This document shows, in pieces, positions 2,450 to 5,187 of a DNA stretch of 64,000 nucleotides. The stretch is from Escherichia coli phage vB_EcoM_Shy: the sequence record MT833282.1, one strand, 5' to 3'. A program made the translations under genes and the position numbers. The notes below the pieces were generated by a model. That model did not search any database. It worked only from the letters and a program-made list of their open reading frames with translations, and had not been told where the DNA came from. Within the stretch, counting starts at the first letter, position 1. Each line of letters begins with the position of its first letter.

Positions 2450-2522
2450 CAGAAGACCAATTACAGCAAGTTTAATCTTATTCATCTGACACGAAATCGG
2501 ACAAAGAAGAGATTTGGTCTGG
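2450..2522 (+). repeat. tRNA-array interspersed element E1 (cagaagacc...ggtctgg family)
   Basis: 5' cagaagaccaattacagcaa and 3' ggtctgg termini shared with elements at 2617, 3094, 3180. Confidence 0.5.
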
Positions 2523-2533
2523 TCATTAAGAAT

Positions 2534-2610
2534 TGCGGGTATAGAGAAAGGGCGTCTCACATGTCTCATTAGCATGGTATCGGCAGGTTCGACTCCTGCA
2601 CCCGCCTCCA
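2534..2610 (+). tRNA. tRNA-Met or Ile2 (CAT)
   Basis: anticodon loop ctcatta, T arm gcagg-ttcgact-cctgc, mismatched 1-72 pair, encoded CCA; D-arm register ambiguous. Confidence 0.55.
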
Positions 2611-2616
2611 ATTTTG

Positions 2617-2676
2617 CAGAAGACCGTATTCAGCAACAAACTACTTTTTGCGGATAAAAGAAAAAACACGGTCTGG
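2617..2676 (+). repeat. tRNA-array interspersed element E2
   Basis: cagaagaccgtattcagcaa ... acggtctgg; same terminal motifs as E1. Confidence 0.5.
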
Positions 2677-2687
2677 CAATGTATTAA

Positions 2688-2764
2688 GGTTAGGAAGCAC
2701 ATAAGGTATGTGCGGTCGCCTGTTAAGCGAATGGCACAGGGTTCGAATCCCTGACTAACCGCCA
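2688..2764 (+). tRNA. tRNA-Asn(GTT)
   Basis: acceptor ggttagg/actaacc, D stem gcac/gtgc, anticodon loop ctgttaa, T arm caggg-ttcgaat-ccctg, CCA. Confidence 0.7.
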
Positions 2765-2835
2765 AATTTAGGAGAGAAGCGATTGCTCACCGATTTGTAA
2801 GGTGCAAGTCCTTAGCCTGAATAGAATAATAAAAT

Positions 2836-2922
2836 GTGTCGTTATCCCGTAGATGGTAGCGGTGGGGACTGTAAATCCCTTGTCATTGAGACTCGGTAGG
2901 TTCGACTCCTACACGGCACACC
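2836..2922 (+). tRNA. tRNA-Tyr(GTA), long variable arm
   Basis: 87 nt; acceptor gtgtcgt/acggcac, anticodon loop ctgtaaa, long variable arm, T arm gtagg-ttcgact-cctac, CCA. Confidence 0.65.
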
Positions 2923-2929
2923 AAATAAA

Positions 2930-3007
2930 GGTTATGTAGTTTAATCTGGTTAAAATACTCCCCTGTCACGGGAGATGATGAGGGTTCAAATCCCTTCGTA
3001 ACCGCCA
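2930..3007 (+). tRNA. tRNA-Asp(GTC)
   Basis: acceptor ggttatg/cgtaacc, anticodon stem-loop ctccc-ctgtcac-gggag, T arm gaggg-ttcaaat-ccctt, CCA. Confidence 0.7.
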
Positions 3008-3093
3008 AATTATAATAAGTATTTCAAAATGATGTTTGAGAGGGCTATTTAGCCCCTCCCTTAAAGAGTTCTTACGAGTATTCTTTAAAGGAG

Positions 3094-3166
3094 CAGAAGA
3101 CCAAATTCAGCAAGAACGTATGAAATTTCAAGCCAATTTAATTTTGAAAATTTAAACTTGGTCTGG
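3094..3166 (+). repeat. tRNA-array interspersed element E3
   Basis: cagaagaccaaattcagcaa ... cttggtctgg. Confidence 0.5.
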
Positions 3167-3179
3167 CTCAACAAATTTA

Positions 3180-3311
3180 CAGAAGACCGTTTACAGCAAA
3201 ACTTAAACAATCTATTTCTCCGGTAAAGAAAAGGCGAAGGTTCGATTCCTTCACTCGGCAGATGTCGAGTTGGTGTAATGGTAGCACTTAAGATGATAAA
3301 CAATGGTCTGG
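3180..3311 (+). repeat. tRNA-array interspersed element E4 carrying a tRNA-like core
   Basis: cagaagaccgtttacagcaa ... caatggtctgg; direct repeat acttaa...aacaat on both sides of the core. Confidence 0.5.
3236..3286 (+). ncRNA. tRNA-like core with permuted arm order (T arm, then acceptor hairpin, then D-like arm)
   Basis: gaagg-ttcgatt-ccttc T arm followed by actcggc-agat-gtcgagt (7-bp acceptor-like helix closed by a 4-nt loop) and agttggtgtaatggtagcac D-like arm. Confidence 0.35.
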
Positions 3312-3312
3312 T

Positions 3313-3454
3313 AATTATCTTTGTAGATAAGTTATTAAGCTTCCCTGTGAGTATGCGACCACAAAGGTGAAAGGGTAGATTCTAGATTTAACCCGAAAAG
3401 ACACATCGCTACAGACCTTAAGCAAGTCTGGGTAGCTTATCTACAAAGATAATT
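3313..3454 (+). repeat. long-range inverted repeat enclosing about 100 nt (candidate structured RNA)
   Basis: attatctttgtagataag (3313-3330) is the reverse complement of cttatctacaaagataat (3437-3454); inner hairpin cagac-cttaagcaa-gtctg. Confidence 0.4.
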
Positions 3455-3458
3455 TAAT

Positions 3459-3534
3459 GGAAGTGTAGCAGAATGGTGATGCGGCAGACTTTTAATCTGA
3501 CAGGCGATGGGTTCGAATCCCTCCACTTCTACCA
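3459..3534 (+). tRNA. tRNA-Lys(TTT)
   Basis: anticodon loop cttttaa (as E. coli tRNA-Lys), T loop ttcgaat, CCA; weak T stem. Confidence 0.6.
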
Positions 3535-3538
3535 ATAT

Positions 3539-3615
3539 GGTTCAGTCGCAGATAAGGTAATGCAGGGGTTTCATAAGCCCTATGAATGTGGGTTCGATTC
3601 CCATCTGAACCTCCA
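3539..3615 (+). tRNA. tRNA-Met (CAT), possibly initiator-type
   Basis: anticodon stem-loop ggggt-ttcataa-gccct with three consecutive G-C pairs, T arm gtggg-ttcgatt-cccat, CCA. Confidence 0.6.
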
Positions 3616-3616
3616 A

Positions 3617-3692
3617 GCTGGTATAGTTAAGAAGGTTATAACACTCCCCTGATAAGGGAATATCGGTGGTTCGATTCCACCTACCAGTACCA
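3617..3692 (+). tRNA. tRNA-Ile(GAT)
   Basis: acceptor gctggta/taccagt, anticodon loop ctgataa, T loop ttcgatt, CCA. Confidence 0.65.
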
Positions 3693-3707
3693 ATCTCAAT
3701 AAAGTTG

Positions 3708-3736
3708 TTGACATTAAGATGTGACCACTTTATAGT
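3708..3736 (+). promoter_or_regulatory. sigma70-type promoter (TTGACA-17-TATAGT)
   Basis: near-consensus -35 (3708-3713) and -10 (3731-3736) with 17-bp spacer; followed by about 290 nt without a credible ORF before tRNA-Arg. Confidence 0.5.
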
Positions 3737-4027
3737 AACTAAAATACTTCATAATATGTATAATTCAAACACCAATACATGAGCGTTAGACGTAACACAA
3801 TGTGGGGAAATTTGTTGTACATATTCTGAATAGTTTTCGTTGCGTAGCGTCTATTTTGCAAATTTAAAATAAATGCAAACGACAATGTTTTCTGGCAGTA
3901 GCTTGATAGGCTAAACACCAGTGAGGTCTTCCAATCCCTCATCAAAGAATTTGGCGTACTCGCCCACGGTATGATTAATAAGGTGGGCATCTTTAAGGGC
4001 TTTCTAAGAGAGCCTTTAAAGATTAAT

Positions 4028-4104
4028 GCACCCTTAGTTCAATTGGATAGAGCAACGGTCTTCTAAATCGTTAGTTACAGGTTCGAATCCTGTAGGGTGT
4101 GCCA
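4028..4104 (+). tRNA. tRNA-Arg(TCT)
   Basis: acceptor gcaccct/agggtgt, anticodon stem-loop acggt-cttctaa-atcgt, T arm acagg-ttcgaat-cctgt, CCA. Confidence 0.7.
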
Positions 4105-4246
4105 AATAGTTAGCAGATTGCTTAGACGACCTTATCGGGTCTCCGTGTAAGGAGGTGGTCTGTATCTCATGTTTTCCAGAACATGTAAATAATCTGAGAA
4201 GGGGCTTTACAGTGTTGCGAAAATACGGTAAGCTTCGAATTATAGT

Positions 4247-4329
4247 GTGGGACGATGTTAAGACTCTAAGGCATGAGCAACGGCCTCCAAAACCGTTTCA
4301 AAGGGGTTCAACTCCTCCGTCCCATGCCA
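4247..4329 (+). tRNA. tRNA-Trp(CCA)-like with enlarged or atypical D region
   Basis: acceptor gtgggac/gtcccat, anticodon loop ctccaaa, T loop ttcaact, CCA; 5' region 4-7 nt longer than canonical. Confidence 0.45.
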
Positions 4330-4342
4330 AAGTCTTATTAGG

Positions 4343-4430
4343 GGTAGGTAGCGGCTAATGGTAGCCAAACTGTCTTGAAAACAGTTGCCACTGTAGAGAT
4401 ACGGTGAGGGTTCGACTCCTTTACTTACCG
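4343..4430 (+). tRNA. tRNA-Ser(TGA), long variable arm
   Basis: anticodon stem-loop aactgt-cttgaaa-acagtt, long variable arm, T arm gaggg-ttcgact-ccttt; CCA not encoded. Confidence 0.6.
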
Positions 4431-4589
4431 CCTAATAAGATTTTACACCGTCCATGCTTGCTCGCATTTTCGGTTTATCCCTCGTGTATTGTCGTACACA
4501 CTGATAAAGCACCTAGTAGGTGTCACGGAGAAGAGATAATATCAAGCTCTCCAAAGGTTCTAGTCACCGGATTAAACAAGACTATGCAA

Positions 4590-4609
4590 AGACCTATTTA
4601 GGTCTTTTT
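4590..4609 (+). terminator. rho-independent terminator-like hairpin
   Basis: agacct-attt-aggtct followed by tttt. Confidence 0.4.
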
Positions 4610-4688
4610 AGAGGGCTTCTAAGGTTATTACAGCTTGTTGTGGAACCTTGTTGCTTAGGTTCTTAGAAGTTCTCTAAAAAGATTTAAT

Positions 4689-4766
4689 GGGAGATTGACG
4701 GTAATTGGTAAACCTACCATCCTTAGAAGTTGGTGTTTGAGGGTTCGAATCCCTTGTCTCCTACCA
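4689..4766 (+). tRNA. tRNA with anticodon TAG (Leu by anticodon, but short variable arm)
   Basis: acceptor gggagat/gtctcct, anticodon loop cttagaa, T arm gaggg-ttcgaat-ccctt, A73, CCA. Confidence 0.5.
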
Positions 4767-4773
4767 AATTAAT

Positions 4774-4849
4774 GCAGGTGTAGCAAAATGGTTATGCGGC
4801 TGACTCTTAATCAGTAAGACGATGGGTTCGAATCCCTCCACCTGTACCA
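4774..4849 (+). tRNA. tRNA-Lys(CTT)
   Basis: paralog of the tRNA at 3459; anticodon stem-loop gctga-ctcttaa-tcagt, T loop ttcgaat, CCA. Confidence 0.6.
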
Positions 4850-4855
4850 AGCATT

Positions 4856-4931
4856 GGGGTCATAGTTTATATGGTTAAAATTCGAGTTTTGCAAACTTGG
4901 GAACTGAGTTCAATTCTCAGTGACTCCACCA
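4856..4931 (+). tRNA. tRNA-Ala(TGC)
   Basis: G3-U70 wobble pair in acceptor stem (Ala identity element), anticodon loop tttgcaa, T arm ctgag-ttcaatt-ctcag, CCA. Confidence 0.7.
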
Positions 4932-4937
4932 ATTAGC

Positions 4938-5012
4938 GCATCCATAGTTTAAACGGGAAAATTACAGTCTTCCAAACTGAGGTTGAGGGTTCGATTCCCT
5001 CTGGATGCTCCA
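4938..5012 (+). tRNA. tRNA-Gly(TCC)
   Basis: acceptor gcatcca/tggatgc, anticodon loop cttccaa, T arm gaggg-ttcgatt-ccctc, CCA. Confidence 0.65.
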
Positions 5013-5019
5013 AATTAAT

Positions 5020-5095
5020 GCTCCTATCGTATAATTGGCTATTACAGTTGCCTTGTAAGCAACTTATCAGGGTTCGAATCCTTGTGGGAGCACCA
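5020..5095 (+). tRNA. tRNA-Thr(TGT)
   Basis: acceptor gctccta/tgggagc, anticodon stem-loop gttgc-cttgtaa-gcaac, T loop ttcgaat, CCA. Confidence 0.7.
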
Positions 5096-5097
5096 AT

Positions 5098-5187
5098 TCA
5101 GAGGTCAAGTGAAAGACCGCTTTGAGTCAACTGAAGACCGTAACAAATTCCACGGAGTTGAGTTAGCGGCACAACTTCAGACCTCTT
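5098..5187 (+). repeat. tRNA-array interspersed element E5 (nested hairpin with gaagaccg motif)
   Basis: cagaggtc ... gacctctt outer stem; internal ctgaagaccgtaacaaattc resembles the 5' motif of E1-E4. Confidence 0.35.

Follow-up and report, generated by a model that had tools for sequence, protein, structure and literature searches.

Four putative Y RNA-like small RNAs adjoin a gene for a Ro60-like protein in a phage tRNA array

The tRNA array of Escherichia coli phage vB_EcoM_Shy (record MT833282.1), analysed here in a window of 64,000 nucleotides, contains four paralogous RNA elements, E1-E4, and covariation shows that each closes on itself through a bipartite terminal stem. The array lies downstream of an open reading frame whose product has a Ro60-like fold. 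Y RNAs are the partners of Ro60 in animals and bacteria, and the adjacency of this RNA family to a gene for a Ro60-like ring protein suggests that it is probably the phage counterpart of Y RNAs. Our preferred reading of the sequence, to which we assign a probability of roughly 0.7, is that E1-E4 are four small non-coding RNAs that act like Y RNAs. The source of the window is a Felix-O1-like phage.

A family of four structured RNAs

The motif CAGAAGACCNNNNNCAGCAA has four exact matches in the whole window, all on the + strand with starts at 2450, 2617, 3094 and 3180, whereas the chance expectation is about 0.2 even with two mismatches tolerated. Each match is followed 40-110 nt downstream by YGGTCTGG. 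A first-pass annotation, made from the letters alone, had described a family of four elements with shared 5' and 3' ends located between tRNA genes in the same orientation, and both statements hold for all four. The motif is non-random and E1-E4 are structured RNAs. As detailed in Table 1, all four possess a terminal module in which an outer helix of 4 bp, which covaries, is separated by an AGA/G internal loop from an inner helix of 7-8 bp (AGACCAA/UUGGUCU or AGACCGU/ACGGUCU in E1-E3). The inner helix leads to single-stranded CAGCAA, which is invariant, and then to an interior that varies. The termini had been described as pairing over 5-6 bp; they do pair, although through the longer inner helix plus the outer one, and the outer helix extends each end by 4 nt beyond the limits given earlier.

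Table 1. Coordinates of the gene, promoter-like sites and RNA elements in the window
Feature	Position	Strand	Details
Ro60-like protein gene	700..2115	+	471 aa; Pfam DUF2828 + DUF7788
Sigma-70-like promoter matches	2134-2162, 2225-2254	+	TTGACA-17-TAATAT; TTGACA-18-TAAAGT
E1	2447..2525	+	UGAC/GUCA, AGA/G loop, AGACCAA/UUGGUCU, UUA-CAGCAA
E2	2614..2679	+	UUGC/GCAA, AGACCGU/ACGGUCU, AUU-CAGCAA
E3	3091..3169	+	GAGC/GCUC, AGACCAA/UUGGUCU, AUU-CAGCAA
E4	3177..3314	+	UUAC/GUAA; AGACCGUU/AAUGGUCU; UA-CAGCAA; encloses tRNA-like domain
E4 V/anticodon-like hairpin	3215-3231	+	
E4 T-arm	3236-3252	+	GAAGG-UUCGAUU-CCUUC
E4 closed 7-bp acceptor-like hairpin	3253-3270	+	
E4 D-arm	3273-3287	+	GUGU-AAUGGUA-GCAC

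The four outer helices flank the conserved core and differ in sequence while remaining paired; that of E2 has changed in a compensatory way to UUAC/GUAA in other Felixounaviruses. The helices also show one-sided changes, from A-U to G-U and from C-G to U-G, which suggest that selection acts on the RNA. The interiors differ between paralogs yet each is conserved: E1 encloses the small hairpin UCUGA-CACGAAA-UCGGA, E2 the hairpin CUUUU-UGCGGAU-AAAAG plus an A-rich 3' segment, and E3 a longer, AU-rich hairpin. Across genera, however, it is the module and not the interior that is best conserved in E1-E3, and the covariation of their outer helices indicates that these three are under selection. The closing helices are supported by covariation. 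The earlier view that these loci are conserved non-tRNA RNA elements is borne out.

A permuted tRNA-like domain in E4

The interior of E4 is a circularly permuted tRNA-like domain, in which a T-arm, a closed acceptor hairpin and a D-arm follow one another. The interiors had been thought to lack T- and D-loop signatures, which is incorrect for E4, as both arms are present and the Rfam tRNA model RF00005 scores 22-23 bits over part of E4 only, under its 29-bit threshold. ARAGORN called no tRNA anywhere in E1-E4. In a structural alignment of the E4 class that was parsed by hand, 99.6% of cells are paired among 12 distinct homologs and 17 of 21 pairs have changed on both sides; the T, acceptor and D helices each covary, and none of 500 shuffles reached any of the observed measures. 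Covariance model R1 scores 114 bits on E4 and 31.6 bits on E1, in the latter case from the module alone. At least 18 loci carry E4-class RNAs in the T / acceptor-hairpin / D order, and all 45 covariance-model matches fall on the + strand.

The 3' half likewise comes first in circularly permuted tRNA genes, such as those of Cyanidioschyzon merolae (PMC3978253), and in two-piece or permuted tmRNA, and the E4 acceptor stem starts as a closed hairpin as it does in permuted tRNA genes. E4 might therefore be read as a permuted tRNA gene that matures to a functional or aminoacylatable tRNA-like molecule, with E1-E3 as functionless relics. In keeping with such a role, the E4 acceptor hairpin has 7 bp, and its loop encodes a discriminator and CCA in relatives (G-CCA-AACA in Citrobacter HP1, A-CCA in Cronobacter S13); normal-order 'long tRNAs' bearing the module occur in S13, FBKp34 and LAh_6, and the 7-nt loops of several interior hairpins, CUGCUAA and CUGUUAA among them, resemble anticodon loops. 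We nevertheless consider this quite improbable. Permuted tRNA precursors become ordinary tRNAs through a eukaryotic or archaeal splicing endonuclease and a ligase, no known bacterial pathway re-joins permuted tRNA halves, and nothing here suggests such maturation. E4 is also passed over by ARAGORN and falls below threshold with the tRNA model, while the module conservation and outer-helix covariation of E1-E3 are not those of relics. Unlike in permuted tRNAs, the conserved feature of the family is an extra, protein-linked module.

A Ro60-like gene upstream

The product of the open reading frame at 700-2115 adopts a Ro60-like fold over its full length, with a helical-repeat ring followed by a C-terminal vWA domain, and is superimposable on Ro60 with ∼13% identity in structural alignments. 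Pfam detected only DUF2828 and DUF7788 in it and no TROVE domain, and phmmer against PDB sequences found no Ro60. The protein is thus a distant structural homolog of Ro60 and not a sequence-level TROVE ortholog. With the first element located 332 nt downstream on the same strand, we propose it as the putative partner of E1-E4. Phage Ro60-like proteins form more than 3,300 clusters in the protein database. The PhageMaP preprint (2024; PMC11482910) independently describes an ortholog, Bas63 gp130, as Ro60-like and located upstream of tRNA genes, reports that it counters the ppl defence system, and goes no further on Y RNAs than to guess that they might be "some tRNA genes". The first-pass annotation had overlooked both this gene, immediately upstream of the elements, and the tRNA-like domain of E4.

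Linkage of the module to the gene across phages

The helix-plus-CAGCAA module adjoins homologs of the gene, on the strand of the gene, in phages of widely differing bacterial hosts: Klebsiella, Aeromonas, Cronobacter, Campylobacter, Sinorhizobium, Mycobacterium, Staphylococcus and Listeria. A tight structural descriptor found 46 matches in the window and the first 14 loci, compared with 1.8 in shuffles. A separate, independent set comprised 65 environmental loci with protein identities of 40-46%. Its 51 matches all lay on the gene's strand, 45 of them within 500 nt of the gene and none inside it; the strict descriptor had no match in 23 of these loci, about a third. Since the descriptor demands pairing, helix covariation over the matches that it defines is partly circular. 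The analysis relied instead on position, strand, shuffles, a count of the hexamer only, and the outer helix, which the descriptor does not require. The density of bare CAGCAA within 600 nt of the gene is 1.49/kb on its strand; the other strand has 0.16/kb, and sequence far from the gene 0.26/kb. At least one CAGCAA is present in 64 of 75 loci, and the module-gene linkage holds over the 75. The interior is tiny in most members of the family, the shortest of which measure 37 nt overall. The RNA family to which E1-E4 belong is widespread and apparently undescribed.

These data bear on two further explanations. Repeated sequences with inverted-repeat ends, in a mosaic region where tRNAs and HNH genes are gained and lost between phages, could be DNA-level sites for recombination, a homing endonuclease or a regulatory protein. 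We give this next to no credence given the strict strand asymmetry (opposite-strand matches 0/51 for the descriptor and 0/45 for the covariance model), the G-U pairs and compensatory changes that keep pairing only in RNA, and the tRNA-like interior of one element. The other explanation, in line with the T4 precedent cited in the first-pass annotation, is that they are stable by-product RNAs of tRNA operons comparable to T4 rnaC and rnaD and unconnected to the neighbouring protein, which fits their location and orientation in the tRNA array and the fact that the T4 tRNA cluster does encode stable RNAs. It is, in our judgement, very improbable: the module follows the DUF2828 gene even where no tRNA array adjoins, as in mycobacteriophages Samty and Rumpelstiltskin and Staphylococcus phage 6ec, and it is missing from a syntenic tRNA array that lacks the gene. 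Specifically, both the gene and the RNAs are absent from the whole genome of syntenic Erwinia phage Hena2, where a relic of 10 nt is all that is left, and neither was found in the 20.9-kb locus of a syntenic Hafnia phage.

T4 rnaC and rnaD (species 1 and 2) are small stable RNAs that are co-transcribed and co-processed with phage tRNAs, and the 3' end of rnaC is a T-arm-like hairpin. The T4 precedent invoked earlier stands as an analogy but goes no further, as the helix-plus-CAGCAA module was not found in rnaC or rnaD and model R1 detected nothing over the T4 tRNA region but a two-tRNA artefact. The annotation of the 5-kb T4 region examined includes no Ro60-like gene, and T4 is not known to have one.

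The position of the module relative to the gene also raises the possibility of cis-acting signals. On the mRNA of the Ro60-like gene they could serve as stabilisers or autoregulatory operators, and in the tRNA precursor they could direct processing or spacing. At many loci a single element lies directly next to the gene, in its 5' or 3' UTR, and minimal copies of 37-40 nt abut the gene's ribosome-binding site. When elements are upstream, the distance from the end of the last one to the start codon is often 11-18 nt, with its CUG directly followed by the Shine-Dalgarno sequence, and in KVP40-like phages the helix takes in the AUG. Autoregulatory operators have this arrangement, which would be expected of a protein that binds the module, and an operator role would itself still imply such binding. 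For E1-E4, which do sit at tRNA junctions, we believe that a cis-acting role is unlikely. They lie ∼330-1200 nt past the gene, on its strand; two promoter-like sites come in between, and tRNAs separate them from the gene and from one another. Four paralogs with distinct conserved interiors and a full tRNA-like domain exceed what a processing signal needs, and a syntenic phage processes the equivalent tRNA array without them. The genomic linkage as such is compatible with RNAs that are substrates or cis-regulators as well as with stable partners.

Transcription and release

Two promoter matches precede the first tRNA (Table 1); they are matches to the consensus only, and shuffled sequence would be expected to give as many promoter-like sites in total. 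A scan of 2050-7500 detected no terminator-like site past them on the + strand, and the next strong promoter-like site is at 3708. The sites at 2134 and 2225 probably drive a precursor containing E1-E4. The elements abut tRNA ends, and they most likely leave this precursor as discrete small RNAs. We infer that they would be transcribed in the tRNA operon and freed by the tRNA-processing machinery, with RNase P cutting at the next tRNA and end trimming being halted by the closing helices. We found no evidence that RNase III or RNase E would by itself recognise the conserved ends as sites.

Comparison with Y RNAs

The upstream Ro60-like gene and the tRNA-like domain of E4 make Y RNAs of the YrlA type the closest known system. 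YrlA RNAs contain a T stem-loop, a closed acceptor-like stem-loop and a D stem-loop, and the 7-bp acceptor stem of Mycobacterium smegmatis YrlA is cleaved by RNase P (PMC4201824; bioRxiv 10.1101/312249). E4 has the same domain order over 3236-3287, preceded by the V-like hairpin, and an acceptor stem of the same length. As with YrlA and Ro60/Rsr (RF02553; Chen et al. 2014; Wang et al. 2018), E1-E4 are several modular paralogs at one locus beside a Ro60-fold gene on the same strand, although the protein here is a distant structural homolog. Their ends also pair into a closing stem, the presumed binding site, with a conserved motif contiguous with its 5' strand and a separate, putative effector module. 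In contrast to the YrlA system, the protein is DUF2828/DUF7788 and not Pfam TROVE, E1-E4 are embedded in a tRNA array, and most relatives have tiny interiors. The motif differs too: we searched E1-E4 for the Ro60-binding sequences GGUCCGA (metazoa) and GNCGAAN0-1G/CGAA (bacteria and phage phiLo) and found neither, (U)UA-CAGCAA beside an AG...CU-G helix being present instead. Thermus phage phiLo encodes Ro60 with Yrl1/Yrl2 (PMC12135203; PDB 9KOP, 9L5Y); its Ro60 is a canonical TROVE protein and its RNAs, compared here by description, were found by their CGAA motif.

An Rfam search had been suggested earlier. Rfam 15 contains no family that matches E1-E4, and on E4 the YrlA model RF02553, like the tRNA model, stays below threshold, giving no match at E ≤ 10. 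Across 26 related loci the YrlA model never reached its gathering threshold of 69 bits; it scored 37.9 bits (E 5e-7) on the E4-like RNA of mycobacteriophage Samty.

Proposed function

For E1-E4 as Y RNA-like RNAs, the helix 5'-AG...CU-G-3' with single-stranded (U)UA-CAGCAA on its inner 5' side would form the recognition module, the predicted binding site for the Ro60-like protein, and the phage would thus assemble several ribonucleoproteins. If Ro60/Y RNA particles are a guide, the variable interiors may be effector or decoy domains. These would be small hairpins in E1-E3 and a YrlA-like tRNA mimic in E4, the acceptor hairpin of which RNase P may open as in M. smegmatis YrlA. Their purpose, speculatively, could be manipulation of host RNA metabolism or counter-defence.

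A bolder version, which we regard as rather unlikely, would make AG-helix-CU-G plus CAGCAA a dedicated, newly recognised module of the vast Ro60-like family, whose ribonucleoproteins would act as tRNA or anticodon-loop decoys, or tether tRNA-acting enzymes, against host defences that target tRNA or degrade nucleic acids. The module would have been grafted on tRNA bodies in at least three topologies (permuted tRNA; tRNA with the module replacing the acceptor stem; normal CCA-ended tRNAs with the module between the D and anticodon arms or replacing the anticodon loop) and on anticodon-stem-loop look-alikes. This would account for the anti-ppl activity reported for Bas63 gp130 and for the fact that phage tRNA arrays and RNA-repair genes are constantly linked to the family.

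Ro60/Y RNA particles are conserved from bacteria to humans, yet little is understood of what they do. In bacteria, searches limited to the canonical motif have made Y RNAs difficult to detect. The present family offers candidate RNA partners, with a defined consensus, for a larger and more divergent Ro60-like branch common in large phages of many hosts, and names specific RNAs where the Bas63 preprint (PMC11482910) merely guessed. Many phage records contain "tRNA-OTHER" features, over-long "tRNAs" and "hypothetical proteins" that are mis-annotations, and the family would account for these too. One locus joins tRNA mimicry, phage tRNA arrays and counter-defence, and its relatives could supply natural intermediate forms for the route from tRNA dimers by which Y RNAs have been proposed to arise.

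A looser fifth member had been claimed at 5098-5187. The stretch 5096-5191 lacks CAGCAA and has different ends (GAGGUC/GACCUC); it does not belong to the E1-E4 family and is a separate, highly conserved structured RNA.

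Four paralogous RNAs share a bipartite closing stem

The first 8 kb of the window share 97% identity with Escherichia phage JH2 and with hundreds of further Felixounavirus (Felix O1-like, Ounavirinae) genomes, and 26 tRNA genes form an array on the + strand at 2281-7361. Among these genes lie E1-E4, four paralogous structured RNAs in which the bipartite closing stem is conserved and CAGCAA does not vary. Their motif, CAGAAGACCNNNNNCAGCAA, has exactly four matches in the window, each in + orientation (2450, 2617, 3094 and 3180), against about 0.2 expected by chance with two mismatches permitted. 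The first-pass annotation had described elements with shared ends closed by a short stem; the four motif copies stand, and folding completes the description with an outer helix, an internal loop, an inner helix and longer extents (see table). When each copy was folded, the outer 4-bp helix was found to vary in sequence by copy with its complementarity kept. An asymmetric internal loop (5' AGA, 3' G) separates it from an inner helix of 7-8 bp (AGACCAA/UUGGUCU or AGACCGU/ACGGUCU), within which follow 2-3 nt, the invariant unpaired CAGCAA, a variable interior and an A-rich 3' segment.

We refer to the closing helix plus the single-stranded CAGCAA as the module. When 12 distinct variants of the module, drawn from Felixounavirus, Mooglevirus and Suspvirus, are aligned, 99.2% of cells are paired, a value that drops to 19-47% when the register is slid by 1-3 columns. 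Both-sided changes occur in three of the four outer-helix pairs, and in three inner-helix pairs one side alone has changed, leaving G-U or U-G. Hairpin ribozyme loop A and the kink-turn were dropped as identities for the conserved core because in sequence-only comparison the consensus nucleotides misfit.

A looser fifth element, E5, had been counted with this family. It is a structured RNA of about 90 nt (MFE -30 kcal/mol, z = -3.7), nearly invariant among Felixounavirus, Mooglevirus and Suspvirus, and no Rfam 15 family matches it. We regard E5 as a different RNA because its ends are GAGGUC/GACCUC and CAGCAA is absent.

Locations of the RNA elements and related features (window positions unless a fetched locus, L, around a homolog of the Ro60-like gene is named)
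Feature	Location	Strand	Remarks
E1	2447-2525	+	outer helix UGAC/GUCA
E2	2614-2679	+	outer helix UUGC/GCAA
E3	3091-3169	+	outer helix GAGC/GCUC
E4	3177-3314	+	outer helix UUAC/GUAA
E4 hairpin 5' of T-arm	3215-3231	+	
E4 T-arm	3236-3252	+	GAAGG-UUCGAUU-CCUUC
E4 closed 7-bp acceptor-like hairpin	3253-3270	+	ACUCGGC-AGAU-GUCGAGU, directly 3' of T-arm
E4 D-arm	3273-3287	+	GUGU-AAUGGUA-GCAC, UG before
E5	5096-5191	+	between tRNA-Thr and tRNA-Val
Over-long 'tRNAs' (110-121 nt)	L008 6895-7015, 7025-7137; L005 7003-7116; L007 2494-2610; L064 4218-4330		
Short modules (35-51 nt) abutting or overlapping Shine-Dalgarno or start codon	L006 4966-5005; L036 4950-4986; L094 4907-4944; L009 4896-4930; L007 4908-4958		

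The interior of E4 is a circularly permuted tRNA-like domain

The interiors had been said to lack tRNA T- and D-loop signatures, which is wrong for E4: it contains a T-arm, an acceptor-like hairpin and a D-arm, and its interior is a tRNA-like domain in circularly permuted order. The acceptor hairpin of this class is swapped for wholly different complementary sequences in sister genera: Citrobacter HP1 has ACCCUUC/GAAGGGU with the loop G-CCA-AACA, and Sf14 and EcSzw_1 have ACACGU/GCGUGU capped by a UACG tetraloop. We aligned 12 distinct RNAs of the E4 class from Enterobacteriaceae, Klebsiella, Cronobacter, Mycobacterium and uncultured phages as hand-parsed segments of equal length; MAFFT had misaligned the variable loops, and a covariance model was used besides. 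In this hand-parsed set 99.6% of cells are paired and 17 of 21 pairs show both-sided changes, none of 500 shuffles reaches any of five measures, and slid registers pair at 27-48%. With the covariance model, 786 kb of sequence yielded 45 matches at E <= 0.01, each of them on the + strand; the short elements owe their score of about 30 bits to the module alone. The matches include strong RNAs of the class outside the training set, in L035, L012, L089, L062, phiM7 (twice), L032, L056, L064 and L033.

Within CCA-ended, otherwise normal "long tRNAs" the module also occurs, taking the form of a capped hairpin with UUACAGCA after it. In Cronobacter phage S13 (two copies) and Klebsiella phage FBKp34 it separates the D arm from the anticodon arm, and in Aeromonas phage LAh_6 it replaces the anticodon loop; the hairpin-plus-UUACAGCA reading covers these copies, and the over-long set also has a 113-nt match in L064. 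In the uncultured phage L089 (7329-7428) a D-anticodon-T body has the module in place of its acceptor stem. Public records label such over-long 'tRNAs' tRNA-Ser, tRNA-OTHER or tRNA-Asp. The tandem pair of module-bearing tRNAs in S13 mimics the E4 arrangement, scoring 62 bits with the E4 model, and fits the dimeric-tRNA origin route proposed for the bacterial Y RNA YrlA (bioRxiv 10.1101/312249). A hairpin whose 7-nt loop resembles an anticodon loop is found in many of the short elements; the loop reads CUGCUAA in one mycobacteriophage and also in one Campylobacter phage, and CUGUUAA in Rumpelstiltskin.

Module-bearing RNAs adjoin a gene for a Ro60-like protein

The ORF at 700-2115 (+) encodes a 471-aa Ro60-like protein matching Pfam DUF2828 and DUF7788. 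Its homologs are annotated "RNA-binding protein" or "vWFA protein" in some records, and those of cluster-L mycobacteriophages (about 34% identity) "Ro-like RNA binding protein"; structural similarity to Ro60 has been reported for gp130 of Bas63, another Felixounavirus (PhageMaP preprint, PMC11482910). Since a DNA-level search for relatives outside the subfamily returned tRNA matches only, we sampled neighbourhoods around graded homologs of this protein. CAGCAA clusters directly adjoin the Ro60-like gene on the same strand in phages of Klebsiella, Aeromonas, Cronobacter, Campylobacter, Sinorhizobium, Mycobacterium, Staphylococcus and Listeria. Each CAGCAA lies 1-3 nt 3' of the 5' strand of a 6-9-bp helix, and a G follows the 3' strand, giving the family consensus (A-rich)-AGR...helix...-(U)UA/AUU-CAGCAA-interior-(A-rich)-helix'...YCU-G, with UGG...CCA-G as the mycobacteriophage variant. 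Elements have a median length of 63 nt (range 37-191) and interiors of about 15-170 nt.

A loose descriptor (6 bp plus CAGCA) proved overly permissive, with 111 matches in the window, and was tightened; the strict version gave 46 matches in the window and the first 14 loci versus 1.8 in shuffles. In an independent sample of 65 uncultured-phage loci picked by protein similarity alone (40-46% identity), all 51 strict matches fell on the gene strand and none on the opposite strand, 12 of them within 500 nt upstream of the gene, 33 within 500 nt downstream and none inside it. With no pairing required, CAGCAA occurs at 1.49/kb on the gene strand within 600 nt of the gene, compared with 0.16/kb on the opposite strand and 0.26/kb at distant positions, and 64 of 75 loci hold at least one copy. 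Erwinia phage Hena2 (Kolesnikvirus), which is syntenic with the window, has neither a homolog of the protein in its whole 84-kb genome nor such an RNA in its tRNA array, and a syntenic Hafnia Ounavirinae phage gave the same outcome over the 20.9-kb locus covered. Directly 3' of tRNA-Ala, Hena2 carries AAUGGUCUGGUCA (L095 5290-5303), which matches the 3' end of E1 and includes the 10-nt GGUCUGGUCA, the sole copy in that genome; this looks like the relic of a former element, the Ro60-like gene having been lost from this phage. The linkage of the RNAs to the gene for the Ro60-fold protein is tight, strand-specific and phylogenetically broad, with co-absence in a syntenic relative.

In several phages, genes for RNA repair or tRNA maturation lie no more than a few kb from the Ro60-like gene: an RtcB-type ligase in Listeria phage LMSP-25 (L014 7808-9019), RNA ligase 2 in LAh_6 (L007 10070-10993) and a tRNA nucleotidyltransferase in S13 (L008 11280-11395). 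Further noncoding RNAs nearby are a 'drum' RNA in the Listeria phage (L014 941-1039) and a permuted tmRNA in an uncultured phage (L064 1293-1616).

The elements resemble Y RNAs in anatomy and linkage

In Y RNAs the 5' and 3' ends form a stem bearing the Ro60 site, and a second module acts as effector; a version of Mycobacterium smegmatis YrlA with a 7-bp stem is cleaved by RNase P and gains CCA (PMC4201824; bioRxiv 10.1101/312249). E4 and its counterparts reproduce the YrlA architecture. The Rfam YrlA model (RF02553) scored 37.9 bits on the copy of mycobacteriophage Samty (E 5e-7 in a 341-nt search; gathering score 69), in an alignment that spans the AC-like stem and the T, acceptor and D arms and leaves the CAGCAA module outside; on E4 of the window it found nothing at E <= 10. 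The canonical Ro60-binding motifs (GGUCCGA; GNCGAAN0-1G; CGAA) are absent from E1-E4, and CGAA is carried by Yrl1/2 of phage phiLo (PMC12135203). Because the model gave no match or stayed below threshold and these motifs are absent, we do not file E1-E4 under YrlA; they appear Y-RNA-like as far as anatomy and linkage show. Unlike Y RNAs, the phage RNAs would use a different recognition module, and the protein is a divergent Ro60-like one.

No Rfam 15 family covers the elements under gathering and E-value thresholds in the window and 26 related loci, where tRNA, tmRNA_permuted and one 'drum' RNA were the only matches at threshold. The stable RNAs of T4 had been put forward as a precedent; rnaC and rnaD lack the module, and we rejected them as homologs. 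The survey of Chen et al. (PMC4201824) covered only phages annotated with a TROVE domain, e.g. mycobacteriophage ET08, so DUF2828 loci fell outside it. We found no description of E1-E4-type RNAs in the searchable literature, and an earlier mention in subscription literature is possible. The kind of system, a Ro60-like protein with a Y-like RNA bearing a tRNA mimic, is already known; new are the branch to which the protein belongs, the recognition module, the placement of the RNAs inside tRNA arrays and the variety of tRNA-graft topologies.

We consider it probable (roughly 0.7) that E1-E4 are partner RNAs of the Ro60-like protein. They would be co-transcribed with the tRNAs from promoter-like sites at 2134 and 2225 and released by tRNA processing, and the Ro60-like ring would bind the module, with the interiors serving as tethers or decoys by analogy with Ro60/Y RNA. 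More speculatively, RNase P might open E4, the opened form then carrying CCA after ACUCGGCA, and the function might relate to counter-defence or RNA repair.

Modules at the ribosome-binding site of the Ro60-like gene

Where elements lie upstream of the Ro60-like gene, the last one commonly stops 11-18 nt 5' of the start codon, and the Shine-Dalgarno sequence directly follows its terminal CUG, as in ...AAUCUG-aaaggaaaaaacca-AUG and ...AACCUG-aaggaaauaaa-AUG. KVP40-like phages have a minimal 40-nt element with the AUG in its 3' strand and the Shine-Dalgarno sequence in its loop. No such element precedes the window's own Ro60-like gene. Judged by layout, the minimal modules at this site, which have no effector interior, look like autoregulatory operators of translation, an arrangement to be expected if the protein recognises the module.

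Other features of the tRNA array

Directly 3' of E4, a perfect 24-bp terminal stem (UAAUUAUCUUUGUAGAUAAG...) closes a segment of about 100 nt that forms three small hairpins (3312-3458, +; MFE -45.6 kcal/mol, z = -5.5) and may be a further structured RNA of the tRNA operon. A long near-perfect hairpin stands right 5' of tRNA-Leu (4594-4693, +; MFE -39 kcal/mol, z = -6.3), where plant-miRNA Rfam matches are spurious; short hairpins like CUUUAAAG...UUCUUACGAG...CUUUAAAG recur, by eye, at about 3057-3092, 3995-4020 and 6248-6278. Hairpins of the 4594-4693 type may be phage-specific regulatory or processing hairpins.

A weak, partial-model tmRNA-like match (RF00023, 17.3 bits, E 5e-4) at 3839-4027 (+) contains AUGCAAACGACAAUGUUUUCUGGCAGUAG, which resembles the way the reading frame of a tmRNA tag begins (A-N-D-N...); no tmRNA is called there by ARAGORN, and the fold is ordinary (z = -0.7). 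A weak match of tRNA type lies at 4249-4323 (+); it scores 23 bits against tRNA-Sec, under the threshold, and is not called by ARAGORN. CUCCAAA can be read in it by eye, and it may be an aberrant tRNA-Trp(CCA); tRNA-Trp is not called elsewhere in the array.

Minus-strand ORFs at 2360-2611, 2526-2765 and 3085-3303 run antisense across the elements, and for Escherichia phage H12 (L001 3087-3236 and 3223-3324) public records place small 'hypothetical protein' CDSs over E3/E4. These CDSs and antisense ORFs most likely arose as artefacts where RNA genes went unrecognised.
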